DNA of 47,732 bases from Akkermansia muciniphila (GTDB lineage Bacteria; Verrucomicrobiota; Verrucomicrobiia; Chthoniobacterales; Chthoniobacteraceae), in the NCBI GenBank assembly GCA_945906945.1, contig CAMDSZ010000001.1, positions 1 through 47,732 of the forward strand. Reading direction: 5' to 3'. Below, one piece after another: positions 2 through 25,609 of this stretch. The position numbers and the translations under genes were made by a program. Position 1 is the stretch's first letter, and every line of letters starts with the position of its first letter. The notes beneath the pieces are model-generated. The model was given only the letters and a program-made list of their open reading frames with translations. It did not search any database and was not told the DNA's origin.

Positions 2-3000
2 ATGACCAACCAGTCCACGATTCTCGCAGTGGGCACCACCTATGGCATTTCAGCCGGGATGCGCCTGATTGGCACCGGGCTGCCTGACCCGGTGGAAGTG
101 AGTGCAGTCTCCAGCGACGGCCGCAGCATCACGCTCACAGGCTCGATCAATGTGGGGACATTGTTTGGGGAATCGGTGTCGACGATTGGAGCGCCTTCGC
201 TGTCAGCGTTCGTTGTGCCAAACAGTGGCTCTGTCACCGCACAGACGGGCTCTTTGGAGGCGTTGCCCGATTACAATCCGAGCGGGGATGACAGCGAAAA
301 CTACGCGATCAAGCCGATACGCCAGGTGTTGCGGATCCGAGCCGACCCTGACAATTCGCTCATTTCTGGAAGCATTGTTTCAGTGGGAACCATTGGATTT
401 AGAAATTACCCGATAACTATGGCAAAGACCCTGATGGCGGGGACTTTTACGGTTGAGGTGCGTGAAAGTTCTCCGGCGGTGCGTGCGAGCGGAATTTCGA
501 ACGACCAAAAATGGTGGGGTGTGCGCGGAGTGCGTCCGGGGATGCGGGTGATAAACAAGAATCTGCCGCCGGGTTGCTATGTTTATTCGGTGGATGATGA
601 TTCGCGGGTGGTGAATGGAACCCTGTCCTACGGGCGCTTCACGGTGGCAATTCCAGTGGTGAATCGCGACGTTCCCAACACGGTTGTTTCAGGTTGGTCG
701 GGCGCAACCTCAGGCACGGTGAACATCACTGCCGGAGGTGGGAATGGATGGAGCGAAGGGATGGACCTCTCAGGTCCCGGAGTGCCTGCTGACACAAAAA
801 TTCAGGCGATCTTTTATCCTGGCACGATCAGCACCATCTTGTTGTCGAAGTCAGCGACTGTCGTGGCTGGAGCAACATTGACCGCATCCGGGCAGGGGTT
901 CACCGGCGATGTAACCAAAGTTTTCTCAGAGGCCAGATATTTGTACTACGCGCTTACTGGCATTGCTCCGTCCGCCGGAAAAATTTCACTCGTTGGCTCT
1001 GGTACGGTTCAGCTCAGCACACCCATCCCGCTGGACGGGCCTTTGGCATTTTTGCCGGATTCACCAACCGACTTGTATTCGGTGGGGATCCTCAACGGTG
1101 GCTATTTCACGTACAACGATTTCAATTATTTAAAACTTGCGATTCCAGCAAACAGCAACGGGACGGTTGACGACTACGGATTCAATTTCATTTTGTCCGG
1201 GGCCAATACTGCTTCGTTTAACGGGGGTACAATCGCCACGACTGCCGTCAGTTTTTCGAAGAAAAATGGTGGCAATAATTTCTACCAGGGCGGGGGAAAC
1301 AATGCCTTCGGCACTGTAGGAAATACGGCGGTTCTCACTGCGATTCCGGCGTTGCCTTTGAGGACCTGCAGTTTTGTCAACGGCTCCAAGATTGTCCGAA
1401 CATGGAGCACCAAGAGTCTGCTGCCGGGGATGTTCGTCCACCACAGGAATCTCCCTGACAGAGCATATGTGAAGCGAATTATCGATGATCAAACATTCGA
1501 AATATCGTCATACACTGGTGGGGCGACTGGTGGCATTCAGAATGATGATGTGGTTATCAATAACACCGTGGTTCCGAGTCGAGTTCTCGGGGTGCGTTCC
1601 TGGGGGTTGGTGACCACTCCGGTGGCTGCTTCTGGAACGGTGAATTTGAAGCTCAACGATGTGAGCGGGTTGAGTTATGGAACAAGGCTCTTGGGTGCAA
1701 ATTTATCTTCCGGCACCGCGGGCGTGGCAGTGATCACCGGTGTGGATAAGTTCAACTCTTCGGTCACAATCAGCAGCGGGAATACATTCGTCGCGGGGGT
1801 CTCTTTGGTCGCGGTACCAGAATTCGTAGGACCCAATAACATTAACACGTGGAACTTGTATAACTCGCCCATCACTCGTGCTGACGGACAGCCTGTGATA
1901 CTCAATGGCACGGCCTCCAGCTTGAACCCCGCGACGACCTTTCAGGCTGATTTAGGCTTTCTGGCCGTGCCCGGAAATCCGGGGCGTCTGCCCAGTGGCG
2001 CTCGGCTGTTTCCGGACGGAATGGTGGTTGTAGGAACCACCGGAGTTTTTCAGAATTTTGGGGCTGGCGTTGTGCCGGTTAGACAGCAGGTGGTGCTTAG
2101 TGGAACGCTTACAGACACTGGTGCGTTCCCTGCGTGGAGTGGCGCGGTCAGCTTTGTTCCGGGAGTGGACTTGGCGGCGGCAGCGACGGTTGAAGGCGGT
2201 TCAATGGTCACCGTGGGAACCCTGCCAACCGAACGGATCGCAGTCGGCATGCGAGTCTTTGGCCCTGGAATTCCGGAACTCGCTCGAGTGCGCTCGGTGT
2301 TGTCGGGGGGCACCGGCTTTACGATCGGCACGGGAACGCTCGACTTGACCTATGCGGGTAGCAGCACCTCAACCGGAAGCCTCACAGGCGGCTCAGTATC
2401 GCTTGGCACCCTTACAACCGCAACGACGGGAACGGTGATGTCGGTTGGTACAGCCGTAGTCATCGTGCCGAATGGAACGCTGGTCGCTGGCAGTCCGAAT
2501 GTTATCTGCGGAACCGTCGCCGGGCTTGCTCCTGGAATGATCCTTACCGGGTCATCCACCAGTGGAAGTGTTTCGCGCATCACCTACGCGGGCAGAGGGT
2601 ATTCACAGATCGCCTCTATTTCAAATGGCACGCTGTTTACCCTCACTGAGAACGCGAACCAGTCCTCCGCAGGGCCAATGAATTTGGTGGCTGCGTATCA
2701 GAGTTTTCCGAAAGAGTATGGAATGTTCATCACCGGCGCCGGTGTGATCGGCAACGGCCAGGTGTCCATTGGCAATCTTTCCGCAGTCAGTGGAAATGCG
2801 TCATCCTGGCGGTCAGGCTTGCAGCGAGGGATGGTGATTCATGCGCCCGGCCTCTCTCCGCTGGGTGCACACATTCTCCAAGTCAACCCAACAGACATCA
2901 TCGTGTCGACTTGGACTGCCGGAACCTATTCTTTGGGTTCTTTCGCAACCTTGTCTTCCGTTGGACCCACTGGAACGCTCTTGACTTCCAGCCCGTCCCT

Positions 3001-6000: not shown

Positions 6001-8290
6001 CAAGGCGGCTGAGGCCGATTCGAGTGAGCAGATTATTGTGGTGAATCCCAACTATGTCATTCCTCTTGAGGGTGCGTTTGCCGCTGCGAATTCGCTGGAA
6101 GCCCAAGTGGAATCGATTGGGGCGGGCAGCGCACTGACCCCGGGGCTGTCCATTTCGGGATTGAACCTGTCCAGCGATACAACGTTGATCAGCTTCACAA
6201 ATACTGCGGAAGGGACGAAGTTAAATTTGAGCGGCCGAACCCTTGGGTACCCCTCATCGCAACTGCCCGGTTTGGGAAATTTTGTTGCGACGGTCCCTTT
6301 TGTGACATTGAAAGACGCCGTGGTGACCGCGAATTCAAACACGATCACCGTGGGGGATTACCAAGAGCCCCCCGGATCGGTGAATACATACCCACAGACA
6401 TCAGGTTTGCGGGTGGGAATGACGGTGATGGGGAGTGGATTGCCGTATGGAACCCAGATCACCGGGGTGATTAGCGGGACGTTGACGCTTTCGCAGTCAG
6501 CGACCAGGACGGGTACCTACACTTTGATTGTAAATCCAGAAGTGCTCTCGGCTCCAGGTTTGCAGCTGACGGCGGGCGGATCATTGGTGAGTCTCAGCGG
6601 ATCGGGGCTTGGAGCCGATACACCGCCCGCGGAGATCATTGCAGGAAGTCTTTCCTCAGACCTTGCCGAGCCGTTCGGTCCCTACGGGCTCGCCAACCAG
6701 TGGCAGAAGCTCGCCTCCTGGGGCAGGGCTCTTGGCGCCCCAGCAATTCCTCACGGAACGGTTTTTTTATCACCTTATTTCATTAACTTTGGGTCCCTCG
6801 GTGGGATCCAAGCCAGTGATAGAGCTTCAGTGCTAGCCGGTGGGTATTTTGATTTGACCAGCGCCAATGGAAACGGTGGCGATACACTGGGCGCCGCTTC
6901 CTTTACCATGAACCAGCGTGCCACAGCGTCGACGAGTTTAGCAGACTTTTATCTGACTTACGGAAGAAGCAGGCTAATTCTGACGGGTACAATACTAAGC
7001 GGCTCATCTGCCTTGAGTGTTTCAACGGTGGACGGTCTGCAGCTGGGACTTCAAGTGGACGGGGCGGGGATCCCGAGCGGGACCCGGATCGTTGAAATTG
7101 ATAGCATCAACAATCGATTGGTTTTGTCGGCTTTGGCGACGGCGACGACTAACGGAGCGTTCAGCTTTTCGAAAACTGGCGCTCTTGTCTCATCGGATTC
7201 TGGGGTGTTTTTGAACAATACGGTGGTGAGCAGCTTGGACTCGAGTGCTATTCAGCCGGGACAAACTGTATCTCTGGCAAGCGGCTCGCTGTTGATTATT
7301 CGAAACATAGTAGACCCCGTCAGTGGCGGGAGCGTGGCTGTGCCGAGTTACAACAACACCCCGTTTATGACGAGTCTGTTGGGGAATGCTGGTCCACGGG
7401 TGCGCTCCGTATCGTCAAACGGATCACTTGTGTTTGAAACAAATACAACTCCGGGCTTGGTGCTCACGGCAGGCACCTCCATCAGCAGCAGCACCGTCTC
7501 GACAACGTTCACCGTAGCAAGCAACCTGATGTTCAATATCAATGGGAACGTTTTTGGACCGTACACCATGGTGGCGGGCTCCACTATTGCAACGCGGGCT
7601 GCGGCTAGTTACCTGGCGCTGAGTCAGCCAGCGCAAAAAAGCTCCAAGTCGGTTCGAGTTTTGTTGGATGGAAAGCCTTACGGGCCTGTGGAAGTCATCA
7701 AAGGTTCACAGGCTCTCCTTTGGCGAGGTGCCGATTTTGTAAGGGCAGGCATGCCGGTGAAAGGCCCCGGCATTCTGCAGGGCACCACCATCCTGCAAGT
7801 GAGCCCGCCTCTGAGTAATGGGTCGCTCACGCTTACATTGAGCGCGCCAGCAACAAGTGAGTTGGCGGCGAATAGCAAATTTGATCTGGAGGTTGGCGGT
7901 GGGGTTAACAGCGGAATCGTGGAACTCAATGACTGGCAGTACAAGACCAATACCGAAAACCTGTCTGTGGAGCCCGGCTGGTTGCTATACCGCAGTAACG
8001 ACCCTTGGGCGGCAAACTGGTACCCTGGTTTTGGGAGAGGTGCTGGCGGCAGCAAGTTTGAGTTGGTCGATTATCTGCTTTTAGGGAAGATCACTTGGGT
8101 CGCTGGCAATGGGGTCTTTGGATTTGAGCCGATTCCCGATCCCCGGAACCGGGTGGCGTTCGACTCGCAGAGCCAGTACCTCATGGATCGGCTAAGTTTT
8201 GAAGCGACGACAGACGTGGCGCTCTCTTCCGGACGCCAAGGCTTTATTGACCAGTCGCTATCGGATTTTTACATGCTGGGACAGACCCCC
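2..8290 (+). repeat. N-terminal ~2,760-aa region: roughly 20-24 degenerate copies of a ~45-55-aa 'GM-box' mini-domain separated by variable G/S/T/V-rich spacers (75-215 aa period)
   Basis: Recurrent motif, approximately GS..[IV].[VL]-x(4-10)-[LI]..GM.[VIL].G.G[IL]P.GT.[IV]..[VI]-x(4-8)-[LIV]TLS..A. Clear copies: IVPGMAVTGTGLPTGRSVSSVSGTVVTLSGTV (3041..3136); SWAGMAVYGAGIPPGANVESVIASNQFTLSQPA (4820..4918); LRVGMTVMGSGLPYGTQITGVISGTLTLSQSA (6407..6502); VRAGMPVKGPGILQGTTILQV...LTLTLSAPA (7739..7852). The very first residues are also a copy: GISAGMRLIGTGLPDPVEVSAVSSDGRSITLTG (~41..139). Copy count is by eye. Confidence 0.6.
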
Positions 8291-20200: not shown

Positions 20201-23200
20201 CATACGCTTGTGCGAACAGCGGATGGGGCAATTTATGCGTGGGGTAGTAACGCTCAGGGCCAGCTCGGCAAGCCGTCCGGCGACAATATTCTTCAACCGT
20301 CCAATGTGGACATCGGGACCAAAAAGATCAGGGCGATTGCTGCCGGTTCCAACCATTGTTTGGCGGTCATTGACAAGTCCAGCGCAGGCGCAAACACGGT
20401 CCTAAGCTGGGGCGGGGGGCCTGATACGCCGGCTCAACTTGGCCGCAAAATCGCCGCCGGCAAATTTGTTGTTGCCTCGGGAGCCTATTCGGGCGAACTC
20501 ACCGGTGAAATTTGGTCAGATGCCGCCCTCGCCCAAGCGGTTTTTAGCATGACTGTAAATACAGACTCTGGGGTTTTCTCTGTGCCGCCGCGCATCTTAT
20601 CCGCTGCTCCAGCATCAGGCGCTTCGGCTACCAATCTGGTTCTAGATCAAAAAGCGCAACGTTCTGGGGTTTTTGCCGTCACTATCTCACACCCAGCATG
20701 GAAGCCTTCGCCGGTGATTTGCACTGTCAACGGCCAACTGCGATTGCTGAAGGCCTTTGATTTTTCAACCGAATCCGCTTTGCTTACGAAGTTGAAGAGC
20801 GACGGAAAAAAGCTGGGACTCGAAGCGGTCTCCTGCGTGTCAACCGGATTGGCGCATTCCTTGGTTCTAGGGGACGACTTGAACGTCTACGGGTTTGGCT
20901 CCAATGCGAAAGGCCAAGCGGGGCAGGTGGACACAGTTCAAATGCAAGAGGTCGCGTTGGCGATGCCGATTGAGACAGCAAATATCCGCGGTGAATTATT
21001 TAGATCGGTCGCAGCAGGGGATGTGCATTCCATAGCTTTGACTTCCAAAGGGGTGCTTGTGTCGTGGGGTGATAACAGTTCCAAGCAACTTGGACGATCG
21101 GTGATCAAGTCGGTTGAATCGAGCTTGGTAAGCACCAACACGTTGGTGGTTTCAGGAACGAGTATGCTGAAAGTGAATTCAATGGCGGCGTACTTTGAAC
21201 AGAATGTGGGAGGTGGAAAATGGGATGCTCGTTCAGGATGGTCCGGCAAATATGACTTGGGATTGAACATTTGGCCGCAGGTTTTCTCTCCAGCCTCAGC
21301 GAGAATCTCTGTGATAAATGCTAGTCGGGTTGTCAGGCTCGATGGGTTCTTCTCCCTGCCAGTCCCCACTATGCAGGGCCAACCGATTGAGGTGGTTTTT
21401 GCGGACATAACCAATTTCTCGGGGATGCCGAGAAAAGCCTTCTATGTAGAATCCGACCCAAAACAGTTAAGTTCCATTGCCTCGGGAGGCAGTTCAAACA
21501 TTGCGATCGGAGCGGATAGTAATGTCTATGTCTGGGGACGCAATGGGGGCCAGTTGGGGATTGAATGGCGAGATATCTCGGAATTGGCAGCCCCGCAGCC
21601 ATTGGAATTCTTCTCCTCGGTGCTGTGTAAAAACTCGCGGGCTGTGCGAGTATCCGTGGGCGGGCATGGCCATGACACCGGCCATGCCTTTGCGGTGGAT
21701 TCTCAGGGTATGCTTTTTGTGTGGGGCGACAACACAGCCGGACAACTCGGTGATGGATTGTTGGCGGAGCGGAGAGTGCCGAACTACAATGCGTTTTCAG
21801 ACTTTGGCAATTACACGCTGAAAGTGCGTTCAAGCGTGGATGGTCAACAAGACGAATCCGAGGGAGTGTTTCTCGTGCAGCCCGAGGTGGAGGCTTCGCG
21901 ATTCGGTGAGTGGCCAAGAGCACTTTTAAGCCCCGAGCTTCAGGTGAGCTACAAGGGGTCTGTAGCGATTAACATCCCTGGGCCAATGGGCTACCCTAAA
22001 CCCGATGTACAATGGGTCGATGGAGGGACGCGAAGCTTCGGAAATTCCTACGTGGTAAACAACGTCGAAAGTCTAAGGCAGGTATCGGTGACACTTGGGC
22101 AGCGTGACGGCTCCGGAAACTTTATTCCGCTGCCTAATCCGGATCTCTTGAGCCGATGGTCTTTTAATAACCCAGCTGAACCAGCAAGACTCACGGGAAG
22201 TTTTGATTACGCTTTTGAGTATCAACTCGGGAGTCAAACTGGGTTGACTTCCGGGTCTACGTACCAAACCACTCATGCAGCGGCGACGAGCGCCGCGCTG
22301 GCACTCCGCCCAAGTGACTCTAGTACGAGCAACTTGATCGTCGTGCCGTCTGTAAACCCGAATTATGAGCCGCTGGAGAGTTTCAGGGATGCTATGCTTA
22401 AGCAGAGGAGCTTACGCGACCAAGACTCCGGCAATTTCAGCGTGCGGACAGATGCTGGGCCTGCGGGCACTGCATCCTTCGTTGATTTGAGCGAATTGGA
22501 CCCGAGTGATGCGACGAAGGTGATTGCTGGGTCCGGAACAATCAAATTCAGTTCTGGTGCTCTGGCCGTTGGCGCGCTGAAAAGCGGCTCTCTAACGACA
22601 TTGACACCTGATGCCACGCGGGCTGCCAGCTACGTCTCCCTCCCCATGAGCTTGACTGGCGAGGAGATTGCAAGAGACGGTCTGACCGTAGAGGTTTGGG
22701 CAGCGCTCAATAACGCGACGGCATTCCCAACGATCTTTAGTTTGGACACTCCCAATAAAGCGGGCGCGGAACTTTGGGCGGGCTATTATTATGCCAAAAC
22801 TGACACGAGTCGCCCAGCTCTGTCCTCCTCGCTGGCTGATGCGGCAACGGCGACCGCCACGACTGCGATGCCGCTGGTACTTGGCAAAATCTATCATTGG
22901 GCTTTAGTTGTCAGTCCTGCAGCTGCCAAGGCGACGCTGTATCGAGACGGGGTGGAGGTGTGTTCCGTCCCAGTGAGTTTGGCAGATGTGGGAGCTCTTC
23001 AATTTGGAGAGCTGTGCTTGGGCAAATCTTTGACAAATGACGATCCACATTCCTCTGCTACGTATCTTGAGGCGCGCGTGTGGCGCCGGACCTTGAGCGC
23101 GGCTGAAATCAAACAGAACAGCGATTTGAAAGAAGATGCTGACTTCAGTTACAGCCGAAATTTCAAGGTCGTTCCAAGTGGATTCCGTCTACTGGTACCG

Positions 23201-25609
23201 GATTGGGAGCGCGCTGGAGTTCGCAGGCGCGACTCTGTAGTAACGGTTGCGCAAGGTGACAGCATCAAACTCTTCGCGGCGTTTGATGGTCAGCCTTGGC
23301 CCGGCATGAGCTACCGATGGAAAAAAGATGGAATGTTTTTGAACGGAGAAAATCAAAGCTCGCTTGATTTCTCCAACCCGATGGAAGAGTTGAATCTTAA
23401 TAGAGGAATAGTTCCTCGTCAGGCTGGAAACTACCAAGTGGTCGTCTCTGATGGGTTCGTCATAAAAGAGAGTCCTGTTGTCAAGGTTGTGGTCACCAGT
23501 ACATCGGCGGTCACGCTCACCGGGAACCTCACACAGGATTCAGACTACGTAAAAGTAAGCAACGTCTCGAATCTGAAGGTCGGGATGGGCATAGGTGCGA
23601 GCGGCATCCAGAAGGGGACCCTCATTGTTGAAATTATTCCTGCCACTTCAACCATTAGACTCTCAAGCTTGGCCTTCACCACTGCTTCGAATGTAACGAT
23701 AACTGCCTCGCAGGATGCTCTCTACCAGGTCATCGTAGACTCCAGAGACATCGATGGAAACGATGGCGTGCGAGGTGTTGAAATAATCCCACAACTAGGC
23801 GCTGAAAATTCTTACCTGCCCGCGGGCACTAGCGTGAGGATTGCGGGGACACCTGTTTCGGGCATTCTTCGTGGCTGGAAAATCACCGATCCAAGAAATC
23901 CCGATAACGAGTATGGCCAGGTGCAGGCAACGGGCTCGTGGGTCTCCTTTGTAACACCGGCAAAGGACATAAAAATCACACCAATCATTGGCACGGCTTT
24001 AGCCGGTTTGTATTCAGGGTTCGTCACAAGTTCCTCTTCCGAAGAAGTCACAGAGCAAGATTTGGGTAAAATTCGCGGTTACTTGGAGGCTGCTGTCACT
24101 CCTCAAGGGTCAGGAAGTTGCGCTTTATGGGTCGATGGCAGACGCTATGTGTCGAGGCCAACTTTTGGGTGGGTCGAGGGCGCGAAGATCGATTTATCGG
24201 TCGTCGATAAAACCAGTGGCGTCACAGTCGTCGAGGTATTGGAGGGCGGCATAGCTGAAAAGGCTGGCCTCAAAGCGAGCGATATTATCGAGTCTGTACA
24301 GGTTGAGGGCAGCTCTACTGCAATCGAACTTTACCGGGTCCGTGATTTTGACGCCTTTGTAAACAACTCTCGAATGATAGGCAAAAAAGCCTACCTCAGT
24401 GTCGTGCGCGCGGGAGTAAGGCTCGCAGAGCCTTTAGTTGTACAGCCCGAGAGTGAGTGGTACATGCGATCGATGATCCAGTTGGATACCAAAGGGCTGG
24501 GGACTTGGGTTGGTGAGATGAGTATCAAAGCTGACGAAAAACGTGGAACCCGTGCTTTTTTAAATTTGAGAAACGTGTCGCTGAAAAATCCCGCATTTAA
24601 CTCGGCGGAAATTTCGGGAGGAAACGACATTTTCTGCAACGCCTACACCCCTGTCGGTATTGGAAAAACCAACTATGGGTTGCACTCTGCAGGTCTGTAT
24701 AAGGGAACAGGTAAAGTTGAAAACCTCGGGCAAGGTGGCGTCTTTTTGATCCAGACGAACGCGACAGCCGGCACCGCCTTGATTTACGGGCGACTCGGAA
24801 ATGGAAAACAGTTTAGTTTCAGGGGCATTGTAGGTAGACTATTTTCGCCATCAACAAACCTTGGGTCTGACTTCCTGAGCGCCTCAGCATCGGTCGCGAA
24901 TGTATTCTCCGAAACTATCGTTGACGAAACCCCAGAGGCTGCAATGCGAGACGCCCTCTATCGCAAAACAGTAAATCCGCTGATGCCTGTCTGGAGCCTG
25001 GGTGACTTGCGAACAGACTTGAATTTCATTGCTGGTGCGGTGGTTTTTGATGGCGAAAAAATCCATGGATCCGTGGGGATGATCAACCGCCCTCTGAACT
25101 CGACGGGATTCAGCACAGAATATACTCCCAATAAGCTTGTGGGTCACGCCGTGCTTCCAGCCACGACTGGCACATTGGGTTCAGCCGTATGGCTACCTTC
25201 CGATGCAGTTACTTTATACTCCAGTTTAACTTATCCCAAGCCGCAAGGATTCGGGTCGCAGTATATGAAGTACTTCGGTACAGCAGGACTCATCTTGCAA
25301 AAAATGACCCCAGAACTGCGTGTGCCAAATGTAGAAAATTTGAGAGTCGAAAGGCCTCTCAGTGGGCTTTTCAAGGGCTCCTTCACAGCGACGGATGTCG
25401 ACTCCCGACTGATTGGAGCTCAGAATCGAATGAGCAGGGGATTAATTAACACATTCTATGGTGTCGCCATTGGTGGAGAGACAAACGCGGGGGTTGGGTT
25501 CCTCCTTCGAGGCCCTGTCGTACAGACCTATACTCAACTTCTTGGCAATCAGCAGAAGTTTGATGAGGTATCTCCACGTACCGAATCAATCCGGCTTGAT
25601 GCTCCTTAG
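2..25609 (+). CDS. Giant multidomain repeat protein, >=8,535 aa (ORF touches 5' window edge, so may be 5'-partial); probable surface/extracellular binding protein
   Basis: Single stop-free frame-2 ORF (ATG at 2..4, TAG at 25607..25609). The other five frames contain only short ORFs (<=241 aa) across this span. The translation resolves into repeated recognisable domain families (NHL, RCC1, Ig-like, LamG, PDZ). No upstream sequence is available to confirm the start codon. Confidence 0.9.
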   Translation: MTNQSTILAVGTTYGISAGMRLIGTGLPDPVEVSAVSSDGRSITLTGSINVGTLFGESVSTIGAPSLSAFVVPNSGSVTAQTGSLEALPDYNPSGDDSENYAIKPIRQVLRIRADPDNSLISGSIVSVGTIGFRNYPITMAKTLMAGTFTVEVRESSPAVRASGISNDQKWWGVRGVRPGMRVINKNLPPGCYVYSVDDDSRVVNGTLSYGRFTVAIPVVNRDVPNTVVSGWSGATSGTVNITAGGGNGWSEGMDLSGPGVPADTKIQAIFYPGTISTILLSKSATVVAGATLTASGQGFTGDVTKVFSEARYLYYALTGIAPSAGKISLVGSGTVQLSTPIPLDGPLAFLPDSPTDLYSVGILNGGYFTYNDFNYLKLAIPANSNGTVDDYGFNFILSGANTASFNGGTIATTAVSFSKKNGGNNFYQGGGNNAFGTVGNTAVLTAIPALPLRTCSFVNGSKIVRTWSTKSLLPGMFVHHRNLPDRAYVKRIIDDQTFEISSYTGGATGGIQNDDVVINNTVVPSRVLGVRSWGLVTTPVAASGTVNLKLNDVSGLSYGTRLLGANLSSGTAGVAVITGVDKFNSSVTISSGNTFVAGVSLVAVPEFVGPNNINTWNLYNSPITRADGQPVILNGTASSLNPATTFQADLGFLAVPGNPGRLPSGARLFPDGMVVVGTTGVFQNFGAGVVPVRQQVVLSGTLTDTGAFPAWSGAVSFVPGVDLAAAATVEGGSMVTVGTLPTERIAVGMRVFGPGIPELARVRSVLSGGTGFTIGTGTLDLTYAGSSTSTGSLTGGSVSLGTLTTATTGTVMSVGTAVVIVPNGTLVAGSPNVICGTVAGLAPGMILTGSSTSGSVSRITYAGRGYSQIASISNGTLFTLTENANQSSAGPMNLVAAYQSFPKEYGMFITGAGVIGNGQVSIGNLSAVSGNASSWRSGLQRGMVIHAPGLSPLGAHILQVNPTDIIVSTWTAGTYSLGSFATLSSVGPTGTLLTSSPSLTGTGTITMATATGIVPGMAVTGTGLPTGRSVSSVSGTVVTLSGTVSGVVSGATITFSSFYSLNPSALNAPIYFSATPSLAGGTGFTNNISVGTASGVNGYWLSGGTALASSNQITVTSAPSYLKPGMTLYHPFLNSGSLVESQRGWARVADVSGGVVTIVGSLGSAVSSGTFGIAGYLPMMLSPGSLSVDGTQLTFSGSSNLSAGMLVHGGTVNGGGAYGSISGGGSFTGFIPVVPPGTFVRNVSTDGRTVTLNGTLNTIAAGSLDAGSLIFSTLPGQIIPAVSTRPHSKRLFVQSGSIAQSGYPLTARLAWWRDSNITLVTAEALANNNTEIILNITNQPNNIPFPSISEGAPIVITPPFVTMNARGKAGSNVVSLEGGTNALVNIRAQGEDLKVGMPIFGYGVQRGTFIEFINEYTNPVTVELSQALGLDIPVTVYDADGSGAVDALDEPLSYETLVVNTSIVSSILNKSTASQTEIQVFDNSGYFPGMPLVNSLGNLTALGLNVIAKIPTGARVVSKRDSTFLTLNTPLVGTTNYTTVPYAAYTNATTAEAANGAVVYATAPYIRLRGRSATRTAAQGGGSSVTTIPGSSIVDFDSSFIQMDPSWAGMAVYGAGIPPGANVESVIASNQFTLSQPAAPTSLVPQQAAAPIILDPTRVVVSQFYGDKSSLAQLTLNAGDSVLSALQKNMILDSPTPSFGGAQIGNGLPNLTYLTGGASLSSRTVGISGTLTSVFSGINVRAFYAPIPIGVSAQTSENSFTVSGNLTALYEGMALLGGSIATTSSSNVRLRTIDQGNSEITFAPFLRVGTMEATPSSHPELSGMLSSPIITPGRLWFVNPTTVLFKSVGFTEGGTIAVSGSVPSFDDVNSVIREPITTNLYGGTKIKSLLTPVTNFELSMPARATSGGVRLLVNLAGDRANPAASVSAGSRNRSFIQIPRASTTAGSSVVQFAAAIKALYLDSTANGYSIVGQPIYGTGIPADAFVQSVAMDGLSLTLSKAAEADSSEQIIVVNPNYVIPLEGAFAAANSLEAQVESIGAGSALTPGLSISGLNLSSDTTLISFTNTAEGTKLNLSGRTLGYPSSQLPGLGNFVATVPFVTLKDAVVTANSNTITVGDYQEPPGSVNTYPQTSGLRVGMTVMGSGLPYGTQITGVISGTLTLSQSATRTGTYTLIVNPEVLSAPGLQLTAGGSLVSLSGSGLGADTPPAEIIAGSLSSDLAEPFGPYGLANQWQKLASWGRALGAPAIPHGTVFLSPYFINFGSLGGIQASDRASVLAGGYFDLTSANGNGGDTLGAASFTMNQRATASTSLADFYLTYGRSRLILTGTILSGSSALSVSTVDGLQLGLQVDGAGIPSGTRIVEIDSINNRLVLSALATATTNGAFSFSKTGALVSSDSGVFLNNTVVSSLDSSAIQPGQTVSLASGSLLIIRNIVDPVSGGSVAVPSYNNTPFMTSLLGNAGPRVRSVSSNGSLVFETNTTPGLVLTAGTSISSSTVSTTFTVASNLMFNINGNVFGPYTMVAGSTIATRAAASYLALSQPAQKSSKSVRVLLDGKPYGPVEVIKGSQALLWRGADFVRAGMPVKGPGILQGTTILQVSPPLSNGSLTLTLSAPATSELAANSKFDLEVGGGVNSGIVELNDWQYKTNTENLSVEPGWLLYRSNDPWAANWYPGFGRGAGGSKFELVDYLLLGKITWVAGNGVFGFEPIPDPRNRVAFDSQSQYLMDRLSFEATTDVALSSGRQGFIDQSLSDFYMLGQTPDFFVEAGNARSIRWYKDGELLNQAAGSSRVQVRVSNYTEGFSPSVARTATSDFWQRSQLSLSALTLSSPGFYYANGVSSNAGSYSLSDLIQVSIPDPQPLIVKQPVSKVVQRAGTQVTLEVDLKCNSKALLDTPRGLAVAPDGDFYVVESGNNSLRKATLGGFVNTMIGSKKAILDPNADGVSRDSIWGMASGIAVRVGSLMISDKLLILPSGTAGLTAGMKVLSSSINDRILLSNSAGITISGFAGANTVILSGAPAGDSPSHSIIFIRPEAELPASTNEVVYRRAISSYSSFGVTLPSGVQNIVPGMLVCGYGVPDFTTVTAVEAKSNSVTLSGWIRHEGLEANNLLVFVRPLNQPEAIASDEVGALYIADTGNNRILRFYPKTVQDKSRGFDPAVPAGTVEVLTPASGPQLSAPRGITVVGYGPEAVVYVANSSQNTVLKIARSGASWVSTTLAGKPGVSGYADGVATSATFNGLRDVAYYNESVYVADYLNHTIRRISLGQTPEVTTVAGAPGQAGLIDGSGSAAKLYFPAGLAVNKVDGSLTVSDLGNHAIRKLNANGSLVTIAGKIFNGIPAFGKEDGLGTSAGFWYPKGIAIDKTGVIRIADTSNHLIRSITPDAAVSTVAGVAKFPFFRDSDKDWAKPVAYVPTEFMVQWYKDGAKITDGITPNGSVFAGTKTRILTIDQVTEQDSGAYAALFESVTRVPVETNVTQVVVGGNLAPDYVGEFTVTPGTLGAMKMNFRDILPPTPSEAFVLNQIRWDETFESEKPFWLDLVSSTLPSELDGKKVTLSAAGVNHSMVLTEDGKLYAWGANSYGQLGVGDRSARFTPVPVYMGGVLSGKTITKIALGEHHSFVLDKDGALYSWGRNDFGQLGIGSVSDAKVYPEKALLTGWTAIASGYQHALAVNFRGELYTWGLDHHSQLGRLNRPATRTVTFSNVSLAALSQTVGLGNSTGLIAGSTLTFAAGLLDGGTVQAVVSSVIGEGQLRIGTASASAISGTTFTASVYCDPVPTQITVSNVTPFVQNSVEQTGNVIAGGRAHSLVATTGGVLAWGENNLFQAGALSFADVATPQLISATNGLQISQVSAGREHSMALSDGGTLLAWGRNDSRQLGADLHPRVVSGSASVAAGGTLTGSGTSSVIQLASVDGITRGMSFTGANLTGTTPKVREVLSGQGVMLSGGSVTLAEGGTMLSFQRITAGTVHGTEYRMTAYPISTEASNVVRVSSTAALGASSRSNRVDPAWAGTVSRTLTMVSTGSWAPGMAVYGTGVPSGTRIVSVDDSSNQVTLSGSVTVSPSTVLDARGSSLGNELLAGPMKVTGFSATGQSFSSTLRLERIVEGPAVVLSGNASFVSGGSAALSARYGNLALSGTVAFTGSLVAGTTQVVVAGTSGLEIGMELSASGSLAAGTTIQEIVTGKLKLSSAPLISGASVPMIATRVASSSPVAVNLSELRLPEAVSSVTRRVTDISSGAQFNFIKTSDGLFWAWGLNSDGQLGDGTFNDKSIPTAFLSPAEETFAWIAPGGNHALATTTGGGLFSWGGNQSGQRGDGTTNTVADPQRHKGITEYFLQAQSIPDSEGQQQVRARVILNDSQKVETLVVVKPSAANYVSPNAPVITKQPASVMVAAGATATLTVEARSELPLQYQWMLNGVDVALGGNSPNYALTDSPRTPIAGLYSVKVSDERGSIVSKTVQVAVVNSPSVFAEPEAQVILPKTSTSIQVLMQSQFKTLFNSPHGLVVRGNGDLLVADRDNSVVRVMNDGGFVETLVGIPQQSGWVDSVGNLSRLSRPEGLTVLNIGEFELVFITDPGSHTVRCLTWEFDKSVGDFVYRLRTVAGLPMQAGFVDGDMKEAKFNSPMGVAGFVSQRKDTSTQLPLPDQYEVYLYVADLNNHALRLVLLPVTVSEDALAADPRSKRTLQIAPSMVASVAGATPITPGPGSNDSAASGQPAQFLLPSDVAVQAGSSHAVYVVDSGNHSIRRVEADAPTSQRLAQGVIVGTYKGTGSTYITWGSSRRPDWVRPGMKVSASGFFKDETYVSRVDDGGVFVSQPALIQGVTSVQFTDTLVNSIFTTYTYAGTPGISGAQDGAGVQARFWFPQKVAISGDGSLFVSDTNNCLIRKIAPSLDPRSGIVRVFAGVVGKSGSVDGPASMAQFSAPKGVAVSDDGSVYISDDGSHLIRKIYDYYGDRMVATLGGLAKSPGHMDSDLVSEYIYQWKKNGAPLGAAIRGEAGRTLTLSGDAADSGVYVVEVTSAALSSFKFTSQPAQITVPASSAPVAFVKSITVRAGNTYQLGVNDVFKTYFPKLDCKQFIFEQVDSRRQTLPEWIQIPAQLAGPDQAVVSITPKADATTQSLVISVLADLDDGTTKLGYLQFNVQGVRVDQDYRPIIVQQPTSWNSTDSALMSDRLAVKVMSGDEFSTSYQWYQRQKPSASYLSYSGGSQVSVNSLLRSRQAATTGSLALSIPVSGGTGSSLSLPPPLTAGIYALKVTNKKVLSSSTNTVFTQQVVYNTSGNSAAATGSFSTVTNQSLASDGSSVETDLVQVVVSGPPQVVQQPFSYLQSEGDRVILRVYPKTSAKSLMNEPRGIAYNSSDQSLLSVERGNYAVRSVSLGGEVADFAGSRSDWGGDDSRLSREARFGRTDGGPEGLTVDTSGTVYVADTMNHVVRMIYGGTVSTIAGVTGFAGSTNGSGQSARFNMPSGIASRNTVDTSGSEVVILYVADSGNHLVRKIMVLNKGKTNQTISVTTLAGGAGISGYVNGDGSSARFSEPFDVAYSNNKVFVADFQNHAVRCITDHNDGNPANVTVITLAGGALVGGTEVFGLDIPNNPDSPLSGLDAGLKAKFLHPTGVASDGQFVYVADWGNHVVKRVSFPSPGAQQQSLRVEVIAGESGVPGESGDGPVKAKDARFKEPTKVAVDPLGNVYVSDSWNHVIRKIGLDQVMTTVAGVEGLPGDLNSDLPVEFYYQWYKGNRPITGGSGNASSYEIKSLSSASEGDYTVLISNDARMSASLMSASASVKMATPTSMKLVDVIAGQTSIIGKSVIRSGSLAVDQLPTWARVDSLGNLVLSPSVMEPVGLVSGTYGGDPLFVNVVSKKQGMLSPRILTEPIDILTGVGQDLNLRAKVQLPGAAATAVATLSAQNVKWYRLGAAGALVSCGTLGDATGARSSLLPDVLPETYEVNLSCPRVQAGQAGFYRLEVTPIQGGAPLISNWIQIVLQASPSFVEQPEPEKFFVVGGSLSISAEVRTPAKSLFQRPVGLASLPNTSRLIIADEEDRTVRISSSGGRVSNWLGASGISGFASGSGENTRLGSVEAIAYDPGIVLNLRSARLTAGSAWIKVKEIEGIHLGMTVSGTLAIPAGAQIEEIGAAEGFFRNIKLSTTATQTHAEVDLVATRASATYLADSVNHVICKVSMAGEMRVLCGSLGVAGDGGLYCSLDNAKFNAPQGVAVDPLDGTVYVSDTGNHAIRMIQQGVPRVYLVAGGTFGDTLALPSYSFKDVSREELGNGFSTFSPLDVKFYQPLGIAARTRLLTSLDFPLGRYVTEVFVADRMNHVVRVIRLNARKPDNSFAVLNWSGLSTDKSAYFKEGLYDKVLGVLTWAGQPGISGAKDGAGDSAKFNLPYGLALDFGNEVDGSLYVADQGNHALRRIATEFDAQTLVFKDQGTVETVAGILGVPGAADGSVVTDPVTQVQTAIPSRLSWPTGVAVNSRTGEVFVSDTGNFSIRVLRDGVLQAFVGELGAKGSFNSAEVLDGFTYQWYKDGSPIAVKGSGLQGVNSDTLSNSPMAFSDIGAYQLEVRGATTLRSAVSLLRAETPMRFIESPLSYVQNNTLTNKGGVWNNDRGFEVDPYGTVRLTATVYGAGNLGYQWSKNGMPLSDGANLSGAVLGGVLSPSVTLGRGGWKKIDSAVAGPRHSAAISAGTLYMWGANDAGQLGLGDRVPRSLPQALPASAFGGNQVKEVALGQSHTLVRTADGAIYAWGSNAQGQLGKPSGDNILQPSNVDIGTKKIRAIAAGSNHCLAVIDKSSAGANTVLSWGGGPDTPAQLGRKIAAGKFVVASGAYSGELTGEIWSDAALAQAVFSMTVNTDSGVFSVPPRILSAAPASGASATNLVLDQKAQRSGVFAVTISHPAWKPSPVICTVNGQLRLLKAFDFSTESALLTKLKSDGKKLGLEAVSCVSTGLAHSLVLGDDLNVYGFGSNAKGQAGQVDTVQMQEVALAMPIETANIRGELFRSVAAGDVHSIALTSKGVLVSWGDNSSKQLGRSVIKSVESSLVSTNTLVVSGTSMLKVNSMAAYFEQNVGGGKWDARSGWSGKYDLGLNIWPQVFSPASARISVINASRVVRLDGFFSLPVPTMQGQPIEVVFADITNFSGMPRKAFYVESDPKQLSSIASGGSSNIAIGADSNVYVWGRNGGQLGIEWRDISELAAPQPLEFFSSVLCKNSRAVRVSVGGHGHDTGHAFAVDSQGMLFVWGDNTAGQLGDGLLAERRVPNYNAFSDFGNYTLKVRSSVDGQQDESEGVFLVQPEVEASRFGEWPRALLSPELQVSYKGSVAINIPGPMGYPKPDVQWVDGGTRSFGNSYVVNNVESLRQVSVTLGQRDGSGNFIPLPNPDLLSRWSFNNPAEPARLTGSFDYAFEYQLGSQTGLTSGSTYQTTHAAATSAALALRPSDSSTSNLIVVPSVNPNYEPLESFRDAMLKQRSLRDQDSGNFSVRTDAGPAGTASFVDLSELDPSDATKVIAGSGTIKFSSGALAVGALKSGSLTTLTPDATRAASYVSLPMSLTGEEIARDGLTVEVWAALNNATAFPTIFSLDTPNKAGAELWAGYYYAKTDTSRPALSSSLADAATATATTAMPLVLGKIYHWALVVSPAAAKATLYRDGVEVCSVPVSLADVGALQFGELCLGKSLTNDDPHSSATYLEARVWRRTLSAAEIKQNSDLKEDADFSYSRNFKVVPSGFRLLVPDWERAGVRRRDSVVTVAQGDSIKLFAAFDGQPWPGMSYRWKKDGMFLNGENQSSLDFSNPMEELNLNRGIVPRQAGNYQVVVSDGFVIKESPVVKVVVTSTSAVTLTGNLTQDSDYVKVSNVSNLKVGMGIGASGIQKGTLIVEIIPATSTIRLSSLAFTTASNVTITASQDALYQVIVDSRDIDGNDGVRGVEIIPQLGAENSYLPAGTSVRIAGTPVSGILRGWKITDPRNPDNEYGQVQATGSWVSFVTPAKDIKITPIIGTALAGLYSGFVTSSSSEEVTEQDLGKIRGYLEAAVTPQGSGSCALWVDGRRYVSRPTFGWVEGAKIDLSVVDKTSGVTVVEVLEGGIAEKAGLKASDIIESVQVEGSSTAIELYRVRDFDAFVNNSRMIGKKAYLSVVRAGVRLAEPLVVQPESEWYMRSMIQLDTKGLGTWVGEMSIKADEKRGTRAFLNLRNVSLKNPAFNSAEISGGNDIFCNAYTPVGIGKTNYGLHSAGLYKGTGKVENLGQGGVFLIQTNATAGTALIYGRLGNGKQFSFRGIVGRLFSPSTNLGSDFLSASASVANVFSETIVDETPEAAMRDALYRKTVNPLMPVWSLGDLRTDLNFIAGAVVFDGEKIHGSVGMINRPLNSTGFSTEYTPNKLVGHAVLPATTGTLGSAVWLPSDAVTLYSSLTYPKPQGFGSQYMKYFGTAGLILQKMTPELRVPNVENLRVERPLSGLFKGSFTATDVDSRLIGAQNRMSRGLINTFYGVAIGGETNAGVGFLLRGPVVQTYTQLLGNQQKFDEVSPRTESIRLDAP
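8291..8578 (+). other. Ig-like beta-sandwich domain (intact)
   Basis: FFVEAGNARSIRWYKDGELL ... GSYSLSDLIQVSI. The [YW]-x-W-[YK]-K-[DN]-G strand-C signature is shared with all other Ig-like units in this ORF. Confidence 0.5.
8579..10450 (+). other. Composite unit 1: Ig-like domain split by a six-bladed NHL beta-propeller (~624 aa)
   Basis: N-terminal Ig half PLIVKQPVSKVVQRAGTQVTLEVDLKCNSKALLDT. NHL blades run 8690..~10180: PRGLAVAPDGDFYVVESGNNSLRKA, GALYIADTGNNRILRF, PRGITV..VYVANSSQNTVLKI, VYVADYLNHTIRRI, PAGLAV..LTVSDLGNHAIRKL, PKGIAIDKTGVIRIADTSNHLIRSI. C-terminal Ig half FMVQWYKDGAKI...RILTIDQVTEQDSGAYAALFES...VTQVVV. Blade 2 is interrupted at 8881..9385 by an insert with two GM-boxes (ATG of GM at 8951 and 9215). 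Confidence 0.7.
10451..13141 (+). other. RCC1 seven-bladed beta-propeller 1 with two large inter-blade inserts, flanked by cadherin-like/He_PIG-like beta-sandwich halves
   Basis: Blades span 10670..~12966: AAGVNHSMVLTEDGKLYAWGANSYGQLG, LGEHHSFVLDKDGALYSWGRNDFGQLG, SGYQHALAVNFRGELYTWGLDHHSQLG, GGRAHSLVATTGGVLAWGENNLFQAG, AGREHSMALSDGGTLLAWGRNDSRQLG, SGAQFNFIKTSDGLFWAWGLNSDGQLGDG, PGGNHALATTTGGGLFSWGGNQSGQRGDG. Insert after blade 3 at 11071..11400 has one degenerate GM-box. Insert after blade 5 at 11642..12705 has 3-4 GM-boxes (GM ATGs at 11762, 12092, 12494). The flanks (EFTVTPG...KPFWLDLVSSTLPSELDGKKVTLS before, YFLQAQSIPDSEGQQQVRARVILNDSQKVETLVVV after) may be one split beta-sandwich; this is tentative. 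Confidence 0.7.
13142..13399 (+). other. Ig-like domain (intact reference copy)
   Basis: APVITKQPASVMVAAGATATLTVEARSELPLQYQWMLNGVDVALGGNSPNYALTDSPRTPIAGLYSVKVSDERGSIVSKTVQVAVV. All strands are contiguous, so this copy serves as the template for the split copies. Confidence 0.65.
13400..15121 (+). other. Composite unit 2: Ig-like domain split by a six-bladed NHL beta-propeller (~574 aa)
   Basis: Ig N-half SVFAEPEAQVILPKTSTSIQVLMQSQFKTLFNS. NHL blades run ~13505..14890: PHGLVVRGNGDLLVADRDNSVVRV, PEGLTV..VFITDPGSHTVRCL, LYVADLNNHALRLV, AVYVVDSGNHSIRRV, PQKVAISGDGSLFVSDTNNCLIRKI, PKGVAVSDDGSVYISDDGSHLIRKI. Ig C-half YIYQWKKNGAPLG...RTLTLSGDAADSGVYVVEVTS...AQITVPAS. A one-GM-box insert (VRPGMKVSASG, ATG 14372) lies between blades 4 and 5 at ~14250..14530. 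Confidence 0.7.
15122..15455 (+). other. Cadherin-like / He_PIG-like beta-sandwich domain
   Basis: VAFVKSITVRAGNTYQLGVNDVF...QTLPEWIQIPAQLAGPDQAVVSITPKADATTQSLVISVLADLDDGTTKLGYLQFNV. The 'LP.W..' + 'I.P...' pattern is typical of dystroglycan-type cadherin-like/putative Ig domains. Assignment is by eye only. Confidence 0.4.
15456..15946 (+). other. Ig-like domain with expanded S/T-rich loops
   Basis: PIIVQQPTSW...RLAVKVMSGDEFSTSYQWYQRQ...LTAGIYALKVTNKK...DLVQVVVSG. Confidence 0.5.
15947..17371 (+). other. Composite unit 3: Ig-like domain split by an uninterrupted six-bladed NHL beta-propeller (~475 aa)
   Basis: Ig N-half PPQVVQQPFSYLQSEGDRVILRVYPKTSAKSLMNE. NHL blades run 16052..~17150: PRGIAYNSSDQSLLSVERGNYAVRSV, PEGLTVDTSGTVYVADTMNHVVRMI, ILYVADSGNHLVRKI, VFVADFQNHAVRCI, PTGVASDGQFVYVADWGNHVVKRV, PTKVAVDPLGNVYVSDSWNHVIRKI. 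Ig C-half FYYQWYKGNRPITGG...YEIKSLSSASEGDYTVLISND...SASVKMATP. No GM-box insert is present. Confidence 0.75.
17372..17600 (+). other. Cadherin-like / He_PIG-like beta-sandwich domain (second copy)
   Basis: MKLVDVIAGQTSIIGKSVIRSGSLAVDQLPTWARVDSLGNLVLSPSVMEPVGLVSGTYGGDPLFVNVV. Confidence 0.4.
17601..17962 (+). other. Ig-like domain
   Basis: PRILTEPIDILTGVGQDLNLRAKVQ...VKWYRLGAAG...AGFYRLEVTPIQGGAPLISNWIQIVLQA. Confidence 0.5.
17963..19750 (+). other. Composite unit 4: Ig-like domain split by a six-bladed NHL beta-propeller (~596 aa)
   Basis: Ig N-half SPSFVEQPEPEKFFVVGGSLSISAEVRTPAKSLFQR. NHL blades run ~18064..19495: PVGLASLPNTSRLIIADEEDRTVRIS, SATYLADSVNHVICKV, PQGVAVDPLDGTVYVSDTGNHAIRMI, VFVADRMNHVVRVI, PYGLAL..LYVADQGNHALRRI, PTGVAVNSRTGEVFVSDTGNFSIRVL. 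Ig C-half FTYQWYKDGSPIAV...DIGAYQLEVRG...VSLLRAETP. Blade 2 is interrupted at ~18263..18492 by one GM-box (IHLGMTVSGTLAIPAGAQIEEI, ATG 18350). Confidence 0.7.
19751..21883 (+). other. Composite unit 5: Ig-like domain split in its E-F loop by RCC1 seven-bladed beta-propeller 2
   Basis: Ig strands A-E: MRFIESPLSYV...TVRLTATVYGAGNLGYQWSKNGMPLSDGANLSGAVLGGVLSPSVTLG. RCC1 blades run ~20041..21760: AGPRHSAAISAGTLYMWGANDAGQLG, LGQSHTLVRTADGAIYAWGSNAQGQLG, AGSNHCLAV..VLSWGGGPDTPAQLG, TGLAHSLVLGDDLNVYGFGSNAKGQAG, AGDVHSIALTSKGVLVSWGDNSSKQLG, SGGSSNIAIGADSNVYVWGRNGGQLG, GHAFAVDSQGMLFVWGDNTAGQLGDG. Ig strands F-G: NAFSDFGNYTLKVRSSVDGQQDESEGVFLVQP. Non-GM inserts follow blade 3 (20444..20845) and blade 5 (21094..21480). 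Confidence 0.65.
21884..22141 (+). other. Ig-like domain
   Basis: LSPELQVSYKGSVAINIPGPMGYPKPDVQWVDGGTRSFGNSYVVNNVESLRQVSVTLGQRD. Confidence 0.4.
22142..23125 (+). other. LamG / concanavalin-A-like lectin domain (Laminin_G_3-like), with an N-terminal extension
   Basis: Opening DLLSRWSFNN. Core: LTGEEIARDGLTVEVWAALNNATAFPTIFSLDT...LGKIYHWALVVSPAAAKATLYRDGVEVCS...LCLGKS...YLEARVWRRTLSAAEIKQN. The 'RVW.R.LSA.EI' ending is the usual LamG_3 signature. Confidence 0.65.
23160..23495 (+). other. Ig-like domain
   Basis: VTVAQGDSIKLFAAFDGQPWPGMSYRWKKDGMFLNGENQSSLDF...RQAGNYQVVVSDGFVIKESPVVKVVV. Confidence 0.55.
23496..23700 (+). repeat. Isolated GM-box copy near the C-terminus
   Basis: LTGNLTQDSDYVKVSNVSNLKVGMGIGASGIQKGTLIVEIIPATSTIRLSSLAF (GM ATG at 23585). 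Confidence 0.55.
23720..23992 (+). other. Possible InlB-B-repeat-like (bacterial repeat) beta domain
   Basis: YQVIVDS...GVEIIPQLGAENSYLPAGTSVRIAGTPVSGILRGWKITDP...SWVSFVTPAKDIKITPIIG. The pattern Y.v.v...G.v.p....y..Gt.V.i.A.P..G..F.GW resembles divergent InlB B-repeat domains. Assignment is by eye only. Confidence 0.3.
24215..24448 (+). other. PDZ domain embedded in the C-terminal region
   Basis: SGVTVVEVLEGGIAEKAGLKASDIIESVQVEGSSTAIELYRVRDFDAFVNNSRMIGKKAYLSVVRAGVRLAEPLVVQP. It has the classic V..V..GS.A..AGL..GD.I..ING pattern (here GGIAEKAGLKASDII) followed by 'l.V.R.G...'. Confidence 0.6.

Follow-up and report, generated by a model that had tools for sequence, protein, structure and literature searches.

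The 47,732-bp metagenomic contig CAMDSZ010000001.1 (assembly GCA_945906945.1), analyzed here over its whole length and called the window below, carries on its forward strand all but the 5′ 13% of a gene that is intact, under selection and about 9,750 codons long. The full protein has a mass of about 1 MDa and is almost wholly β-structured. It combines an array of small β-barrel modules shared with phage virion proteins, six propellers, five of which appear to be inserted in immunoglobulin (Ig)-like domains, and a conserved C-terminal domain (CTD) that matches no known family. We favor, with a probability of roughly 0.6, the view that this protein is a secreted multivalent fiber for binding, located at the cell surface or extracellularly.

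A first-pass annotation of the window had reported a single reading frame open for 8,535 codons, and this is borne out. The frame (frame 2, positions 2–25609, + strand) is open to base 25606 and ends with a TAG stop codon at 25607–25609. Given the base composition of the window, the stop probability per codon is 0.0387, and a run of this length would stay open by chance with a probability of about 1e-146. The accompanying statement that no other frame exceeds 241 codons needs correction, the longest other open stretch being one of 274 codons on the minus strand (13340–14161), antisense to the giant gene and with no sign of being a gene itself. The window is the entire contig, its own ProRS and DinB proteins being on record for a contig of exactly 47,732 bp, and the giant gene runs off its 5′ end; it is truncated because the assembly contig ends there and not because of window cutting. 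A near-identical JGI contig, Ga0453231_0000034 (L001; 106.7 kb, same gene order), is 98.2% identical to the window over 20.8 kb, with seven differences across the final 2.5 kb of the giant gene. On this contig the gene is called at 9,754 aa; therefore, the window lacks about 1,219 upstream codons, and its ATG at base 2 is not the start but an internal codon. A scan of metagenome and genome contigs for the upstream start with the first 400 aa of the visible protein (889 kDa) as query gave no match, and neither did a second metagenome contig scan with the CTD as query.

The giant gene was found in several assemblies, mostly JGI/IMG metagenome contigs. The sole match among species-representative genomes was a metagenome-assembled genome (MAG) of Chthoniobacteraceae. 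Its contig JBILUQ010000175.1, hereafter L006, codes for 1,817 aa, and these are collinear from one end to the other with the 1,767 residues at aa 6769–8535 of the window protein, at 73% identity and with almost no indels. Comparison of the two genes by the Nei-Gojobori method gave a nonsynonymous rate (dN) of 0.158, a synonymous rate (dS) of 1.26 and a dN/dS of ~0.13. A separate assembly (L002) contains a 2,511-aa fragment with an identical Pfam set; other orthologue fragments are P0115 (94% identity, aa 3959–4670), P0004 (80%, aa 7549–8129) and P0001–P0003 (56%–70% over the C terminus). The orthologue search suggested by the first-pass annotation yielded a collinear partner.

For a gene on a metagenomic contig that is cut at the contig end, a chimeric assembly or a pseudogene in decay, still open by accident, would be conceivable, and repeat-rich genes misassemble easily. 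The odds of the open frame, the dN/dS relative to the collinear orthologue, and the agreement of independent assemblies all speak against such an artifact. Collapse of repeats is unlikely because the internal repeats are only 25%–39% identical at the protein level; at the DNA level, Tandem Repeats Finder detected a single 50-bp, two-copy repeat in the giant gene, and assembly collapse was rejected on these grounds. We give the artifact explanation hardly any credence and conclude that the giant gene is real.

The visible protein is almost free of cysteine (0.27%, 23 residues) and rich in glycine (11.2%), serine (11.1%), valine (9.6%), alanine (9.2%) and threonine (7.9%), in line with the composition described in the first-pass annotation. 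Its pI is 5.8, and no transmembrane-like segment was detected in it (Kyte-Doolittle, window 19, threshold >1.8). A Pfam scan revealed four NHL regions, two RCC1/WD40_RLD regions, Ig_3/I-set/Ig_2 matches and Laminin_G_3. Counting blades by their motifs gave six for each of the four NHL propellers and seven for both RCC1 propellers, so that Pfam and the blade map agree with the propellers and the LamG domain named earlier; TEN_NHL of Pfam matches all four NHL propellers. More than ten Ig-like sandwiches had been proposed. About seven have Pfam support, five of them split by a propeller, and the others are assigned by motif. The earlier domain list is correct for aa ~2,850–8,140; it omitted the N-terminal module array, the nesting of domains, the CTD and the truncation at the contig end. 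Its claim that the usual repeats of giant adhesins are lacking holds: RTX, cadherin, VCBS, PATR (PF12951), PEP-CTERM (PF07589) and RHS gave no Pfam match or motif in the visible 8,535 aa. The RTX nonapeptide GGxGxDxUx has zero regular-expression matches, there is no HemolysinCabind-type Pfam match, and the tail, which reads ...SPRTESIRLDAP, is without a hydrophobic segment. RHS/YD, haemagglutinin, PT-VENN and other pre-toxin modules were likewise absent from the Pfam matches of the visible protein.

Inspection by eye followed by iterated searches with a hidden Markov model (HMM) identified 25 copies of a module of ~65 aa in the visible protein, 18 in aa 1–2620 and 7 further on. The N-terminal array (2–7861, +, aa 1–2620) consists of these 18 modules, each predicted to be a six-stranded β-barrel, and of unique linkers of 60–300 aa. 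The array is very low in charge (9.7% K+R+D+E) and high in small residues (52.8%), and no Pfam, NCBIfam or PHROG family matches aa 1–~2,850. Among themselves the linkers share no similarity, and a comparison with the 150 top-ranking module-bearing proteins found none either. The module cores matched by the HMM, all on the + strand, lie at nt 2–157, 506–628, 704–865, 1373–1516, 1625–1786 and 2186–2350 (modules 1–6), 2480–2662, 2780–2926, 2996–3139, 3320–3481, 3566–3778 and 4127–4291 (modules 7–12), and 4763–4927, 5831–6019, 6101–6244, 6329–6511, 6992–7147 and 7694–7855 (modules 13–18). The core motif is GMxVxGxGIPxGTxIxSV...LTLSxxAT, and the profile consensus reads ..GSxxvTvxxxxGlxxGMxVxGxGIPxGTTIxSIxxxxxiTLSxxAT...

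An AlphaFold2 model of the module, calculated from an alignment of the 21 best copies, is a six-stranded barrel with a predicted local distance difference test score (pLDDT) of 94.3 and a predicted TM-score (pTM) of 0.80. Its best match in the PDB is 8ECI chain 1 (query-normalized TM-score 0.80), which we take for gp7, the decoration protein on the capsid of Arthrobacter phage Bridgette (bioRxiv 10.1101/2022.09.09.507160). Next in the PDB came domains from the N termini of phage tailspikes and depolymerases, the barrel at the N terminus of F1-ATPase subunits and the FCCH barrel of E1. A Foldseek search of the predicted viral structures in BFVD produced 20 matches at E ≤ 1e-3 with query-normalized TM-scores of 0.64–0.89 (all but one reaching at least 0.74), a root-mean-square deviation of ~1–2.4 Å for most and a sequence identity of 20%–41% (38%–41% for the top two); these are phage tail-collar, tail-fiber and virion structural proteins. 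At the sequence level, a search of the PDB with the module returned only chance-level matches, and tblastn of the modules against GenBank phages gave no match, probably due to the low-complexity filter and the short length of the query.

When the module profile was run exhaustively against 1.84e9 representative proteins, 5,579 of them reached E ≤ 1e-3 and 78 reached E ≤ 1e-30; one protein can carry as many as 27 copies, and protein lengths extend to 7.7 thousand residues (kaa). Named carriers include Verrucomicrobium "autotransporter-associated beta strand repeat" proteins with a PEP-CTERM tail (e.g., WP_265592841.1), proteins from Verrucomicrobia and Planctomycetota MAGs, and the Geobacter FlgL GAM09668.1. 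No Pfam family covers the module in any of the 57 carriers scanned; its Pfam companions there include Flagellin_N, PATR, PEP-CTERM, Por_Secre_tail, Big_13, GH16 and metalloproteases. Flagellin_N was matched in four of the 57. Three FlgL/flagellin-like proteins (P0015, which is GAM09668.1 of Geobacter sp. OR-1, P0019 and P0021) start with a flagellin/FlgL-like N terminus and contain 8–12 modules. In such proteins the modules lie between the terminal helical regions and, judged from the sequences, would be on the outside of a flagellar structure.

Scanning IMG/VR with a degenerate DNA motif for the module core yielded at least 120 loci. Of the loci examined, 119 of 120 carry open reading frames (ORFs) that match the module HMM, with E values down to 7e-53, and the motif GMxVxGxGIPxGT is present in IMG/VR tail proteins. 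In a PHROGs scan of six of these ORFs, three matched tail collar fiber, tail or baseplate wedge families. One contig filed as viral (IMGVR_UViG_3300015615_001160) contains, in frame +2 from base 3, an ORF of >4,310 aa with eight modules; this is either an outsized phage structural protein or a product of a cellular contig misfiled as viral. We conclude that the module is a real, widespread, unnamed domain, and that the contexts that can be named for it here are bacterial proteins that are exported and proteins of phage virions.

Around each NHL propeller of the giant protein, Ig strands A–B precede the propeller and strands C–G, with the motif YQWYKDG, follow it. The propellers were cut out in silico, and the joined Ig halves were rescored against Ig profiles. 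For the four NHL cassettes, the spliced sequences matched the Ig_3 profile over positions 2–72, 2–77, 1–78 and 2–76 of 78, with 34.5, 23.0, 29.0 and 27.1 bits versus 25.0, 16.2, 19.5 and 17.8 bits for the respective C–G half alone. With the second RCC1 propeller removed, the fifth cassette matched I-set over positions 15–84 of 90 with 20.5 bits, compared with 13.9 bits for the N-terminal part alone (Ig_2, 12–47). Splicing thus gained 7–10 bits in four cassettes and 6.6 bits in the fifth. The same test around the first RCC1 propeller detected no Ig match for a host domain. HMMs of the Ig-to-NHL and NHL-to-Ig junctions matched P0040 and P0054, two shorter metagenome proteins, and did so across both halves. 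Five of the six propellers carry inserts of their own, with recognizable modules in four (NHL1, NHL2, NHL4 and RCC1-1), and the blade counts are still six and seven. The profile matches therefore point to three levels of nesting, in which five of the six propellers appear to be inserted in Ig domains and modules in turn sit inside propellers.

The central region (all coordinates on the + strand) begins with an aromatic-rich stretch without assignment, followed by what reads as the C-to-G half of an Ig-like domain with the motif IRWYKDG (7862–8572, aa 2621–2857; no Pfam match). In cassette 1 (8573–10447, aa 2858–3482), an Ig domain is split between strands B and C by six-bladed NHL propeller 1, as assigned by Pfam NHL and the blade map; an insert of ~190 aa after blade 1 (nt 8789–9361) holds one clear module (nt 9164–9310) and a weak one. 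RCC1 propeller 1 (10634–13036, aa 3545–4345; Pfam WD40_RLD/RCC1, E = 4e-78, and blade map) has seven blades, with inserts after blade 3 (nt 11099–11371), where there is a weak module copy, and after blade 5 (nt 11669–12661), where modules lie at nt 11708–11857, 12044–12190 and 12437–12589. An unsplit Ig-like domain (13145–13396, aa 4382–4465; Pfam Ig_3 and Ig_2, profile 1–79) precedes cassette 2 (13403–15115, aa 4468–5038), where an Ig domain is split by six-bladed NHL propeller 2 with a module between blades 4 and 5 (nt 14312–14467). The β-rich region at 15116–15946 (aa 5039–5315) has sub-threshold Ig_3/PKD-like matches at its start and the motif YQWYQ, and its sequence is probably that of two Ig-like sandwiches. 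Cassette 3 (15947–17362, aa 5316–5787) is an Ig domain split by six-bladed NHL propeller 3, which is free of inserts. It is followed by another β-rich region, with zero Pfam families (17363–17962, aa 5788–5987), and by cassette 4 (17963–19732, aa 5988–6577), an Ig domain split by NHL propeller 4 with a module after blade 1 (nt 18293–18460). In cassette 5 (19754–21880, aa 6585–7293), an I-set-like Ig domain is split between strands E and F by the seven-bladed RCC1 propeller 2, whose unclassified inserts follow blades 3 and 5 (nt 20444–20806 and 21104–21451), the same blade positions as in RCC1 propeller 1.

The C-terminal part contains a LamG/concanavalin-A-like lectin domain (22628–23113, +, aa 7543–7704; Laminin_G_3, E = 5e-15, profile 5–151 of 151), an Ig domain (23234–23497, +, aa 7745–7832; Ig_3 E = 1e-6, I-set E = 1e-4) and the last β-barrel module (23528–23731, +, aa 7843–7910; module HMM E = 3e-17 and 5.5e-13), which is conserved in P0004. 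The PDZ domain listed by the first-pass annotation (24194–24415, +, aa 8065–8138) stays below the Pfam threshold in the window protein itself (PDZ_6, PDZ_2 and PDZ, E = 0.003–0.02, 15.7–17.7 bits), and the region is also weakly matched by the PDZ part of HtrA/Ctp models. At the same position in two orthologues the matches exceed the Pfam cut-offs (P0004, PF00595, 28.2 bits versus 23.2; L006, PDZ_2, 29.3 bits versus 27). A PDB sequence search with aa 7290–8150 returned chance-level matches only.

The protein ends with the conserved 386-aa CTD (24449–25606, +), which is basic, with a pI of 9.1 versus 5.1–6.0 for the remaining protein. No Pfam, NCBIfam or PDB sequence match was obtained for it (PDB hits were at chance level), and a search of 5.8e9 proteins returned only six fragments of orthologues or relatives. 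Its identity across orthologues is 56%–77%. When a CTD profile built from the window protein and its orthologues was run against a set of 154 sequences, it matched the C termini of P0054 (3,120 aa; E = 3e-16) and P0040 (2,908 aa; E = 8.5e-13). Both metagenome proteins contain NHL, Ig_3/I-set and the module, and their N termini, which are visible, look like Sec signal peptides. Nine other module-bearing giants of 2.9–7.7 kaa (P0006, P0017, P0023, P0025, P0062, P0063, P0066, P0071 and P0116) of the PVC group (Planctomycetota, Verrucomicrobiota and Chlamydiota) share a different C-terminal domain of ~450 aa that ends ...G(Y/V)G(Y/F)F(L/I)L..~20 aa..SPIxSGxxxF. This could be another domain for sorting or anchoring that has no name so far. 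The hhalign probability between the window CTD and this ...GYGYFLLP...SPIxSG family is only 37%, and kinship of the two is unproven.

How might such a protein work? In the secreted-fiber model, a low-charge N-terminal stalk of >2,600 aa would be formed by the small barrel modules on their unique linkers. A central array of six propellers (four NHL, two RCC1), five of them placed in a loop of an Ig domain, would follow, with the propellers serving as side-mounted binding platforms on an Ig backbone; because a propeller is inserted in an Ig loop, the chain would enter and leave it at one point. The distal or proximal end would comprise the LamG lectin, Ig, one module, PDZ and the basic CTD, with the lectin acting as a binding platform beside the propellers and with PDZ and CTD forming an attachment or sorting end, the CTD as the envelope-attachment or sorting element. 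Likely ligands would be glycans or proteins on particles or other cells, and export is probably Sec-dependent, by analogy with the two shorter relatives that share the CTD. An extracellular location is favored because the module occurs in exported and virion proteins, the CTD relatives have signal peptides, and the protein is poor in cysteine, acidic and without a transmembrane segment. The extracellular binding scaffold suggested by the first-pass annotation thus remains the best reading, with indirect support; export, anchoring and ligand are the parts that we infer.

Several points weigh against this model. The N-terminal ~1,219 aa are off the contig, so that any signal peptide, lipobox or retention module lies outside the visible sequence, and the upstream genes lie outside the contig as well. 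Downstream, no secretion or anchoring genes, including those for an ABC transporter, MFP or TolC, were found within 22 kb, and the visible protein has no LPXTG-like or type IX secretion system (T9SS) tail, in addition to its lack of PEP-CTERM and RTX. RCC1, NHL and PDZ domains also act inside cells in other organisms. The signal peptides of P0040 and P0054 were assessed by eye, without a predictor. AlphaFold2 applied to the last 635 aa, with an alignment of five sequences, reached a pLDDT of 29, so that an anchor role of the CTD is a guess from position, conservation and charge. The nesting is read from sequence profiles and not from a predicted or solved structure.

Much of the same evidence can be read in another way. 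The protein could be a structural component of the envelope, such as a sheath, an S-layer-like coat or a cell-to-cell or holdfast matrix, with its domains acting mainly as spacers and self-association surfaces and not as receptors of foreign ligands. The low charge and small residues of the N-terminal array would suit such a role. So would the other uses of the module, which in phages decorates the capsid or has a structural part and in flagellin-like proteins makes up the middle of the chain; speculatively, the conserved C-terminal tail "...R(F/L)DAP" of one molecule could be bound by the PDZ domain of the next. For an abundant coat protein, however, it is atypical to be encoded by a single-copy gene that has so few homologues in the databases, and a LamG lectin together with six propellers is more typical of ligand binding, which leaves a structural role rather unlikely. 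Contact-dependent antagonism or toxin delivery of the polymorphic-toxin, teneurin or Tc-toxin type, with the CTD as an effector presented or delivered by a β-rich body, appears improbable. NHL propellers, with TEN_NHL matches in four of four, and a conserved domain at the extreme C terminus do recall teneurin and Tc architectures, and a CTD that matches no known family leaves room for catalysis. However, the RHS/YD, haemagglutinin, PT-VENN and pre-toxin modules are missing from the Pfam matches, and the CTD is conserved rather than polymorphic and also occurs on proteins with different bodies. The gene downstream of the L006 orthologue is an unrelated 638-aa ORF on the opposite strand (L006 5786–7702, minus strand) with no Pfam match, whereas the window has a PSCyt gene at this place; downstream synteny is therefore not conserved and, because the two downstream genes differ, a conserved partner resembling an immunity gene is absent.

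An intracellular scaffold with eukaryote-like signaling domains, as sometimes proposed for PVC bacteria, would account for RCC1, NHL and PDZ, which are classic intracellular modules of eukaryotes, and for the window sequence showing no export signal. It does not sit well with Ig-like and LamG domains, with the cysteine content of 0.27%, with a module otherwise found in flagellar, PEP-CTERM-tailed, T9SS-tailed and phage virion proteins, or with the signal peptides of the CTD relatives, and we regard it as very improbable. Extending the secreted-fiber model further, the protein might represent an unrecognized class of PVC surface fibers built by recursive insertion, in which the CTD would be a new anchor or sorting signal, the barrel would have been exchanged with phages and bind glycans or cell surfaces, and the whole would act as a tail-fiber-like capture device of ~1 MDa for algae, cyanobacteria or particles. 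This more ambitious version is a long shot.

Among known systems, giant adhesins of the RTX/type I secretion system (T1SS) class (LapA, MpIBP and SiiE type) are extended, cysteine-poor, multi-domain proteins with ligand-binding domains towards the C-terminal part. The window protein resembles them in size, extended form, few cysteines, many domains and C-terminally clustered binding domains; unlike them, it has no RTX nonapeptides, no run of near-identical Big repeats and no downstream T1SS genes. With the PEP-CTERM/PATR giants of Verrucomicrobia (WP_265592841.1, 3,774 aa), it shares the phylum, a multi-kiloresidue, β-rich and cysteine-poor chain and many barrel modules, but it lacks a PEP-CTERM tail and PATR and has propeller cassettes, LamG, PDZ and another CTD. 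Phage tail-fiber, tail-collar and baseplate proteins and gp7 (8ECI) contain the same small six-stranded barrel, the motif GMxVxGxGIPxGT included, whereas the window gene is chromosomal amid housekeeping genes and its product has no collar or baseplate domains and far more module copies. Teneurin and Tc-toxin-like proteins are matched in their NHL part (TEN_NHL) only, with no RHS/YD shell. The closest architecture is that of P0040 and P0054, which have a homologous CTD at the extreme C terminus, NHL nested between Ig strands B and C, the barrel module and Ig_3/I-set; they are, however, one third of the size of the window protein, Pfam finds no RCC1, LamG or PDZ in them, and their CTDs are only 27%–28% identical to that of the window protein. 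Proteins of 5–10 kaa are already known in PVC phyla, and Oscillospiraceae have giants, predicted to be extracellular, in which RCC1 is repeated from end to end (West-Roberts et al., bioRxiv 10.1101/2023.11.21.568195); in the window protein, RCC1 makes up two of ~50 domains, both interrupted by inserts. Hence the general kind of protein is already known, and the window protein, lacking in its visible part the defining features of each group, stands outside the RTX adhesins, the PEP-CTERM/PATR, the teneurin/Tc-like and the RCC1-only giants. Its true relatives are a few uncharacterized proteins that have the CTD and the insertion of NHL in Ig in common with it.

Downstream of the giant gene, for which no noteworthy terminator or promoter consensus was found after the stop codon, the window contains two pairs of PSCyt1-PSCyt2-PSD1 (DUF1549/DUF1553) and DUF1501 genes, at 25814–30357 and 44524–47731. 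Gene pairs of this sort, which have no known function, typically occur in multiple copies in PVC bacteria; the first pair has a Golvesin_C domain inserted at aa 469–598. The other downstream genes are, in order, ThuA-like, dinB, thyA-folA, MiaB-like radical-SAM, fabF, sulfite/nitrite reductase, proS, NirD/L-like and Ham1. At 36826–41472, the sulfite/nitrite reductase gene (NIR_SIR), proS and a fused NirD/L-like gene of the siroheme decarboxylase type lie side by side. No phage genes were found near the giant gene, and the neighborhood is chromosomal and of PVC type. The GC content of the giant gene is 0.53–0.58 (0.506 at 24–26 kb) versus ~0.585 in its neighbors (positions 1–26000 of the window), and its coding strand shows a strong excess of G over C, with a skew of up to 0.15; amino-acid bias and foreign origin are both possible sources. 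The isolate name of the L006 MAG suggests Lake Mendota as its origin, and the host is a freshwater bacterium of the Verrucomicrobiota related to Chthoniobacteraceae.

Giant bacterial genes are rare and mostly uncharacterized, and the one described here is intact and under purifying selection. Its size and domain mix alone would cause little surprise; the features that are concrete and open to testing are the unnamed module shared with phages, the nesting by recursive insertion and the new CTD. The barrel module has no Pfam or NCBIfam model in spite of its 5,579 representatives across phage tail, flagellar and PVC surface proteins. The three-level nesting, as read from the profiles, would provide a clear natural case that is relevant to the folding and evolution of very large β-proteins. 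The new CTD may explain how those giants of Verrucomicrobia that are without PEP-CTERM or RTX signals are attached or exported and, if the ligand is an alga or a cyanobacterium, the protein would have a bearing on particle attachment by freshwater Verrucomicrobia.

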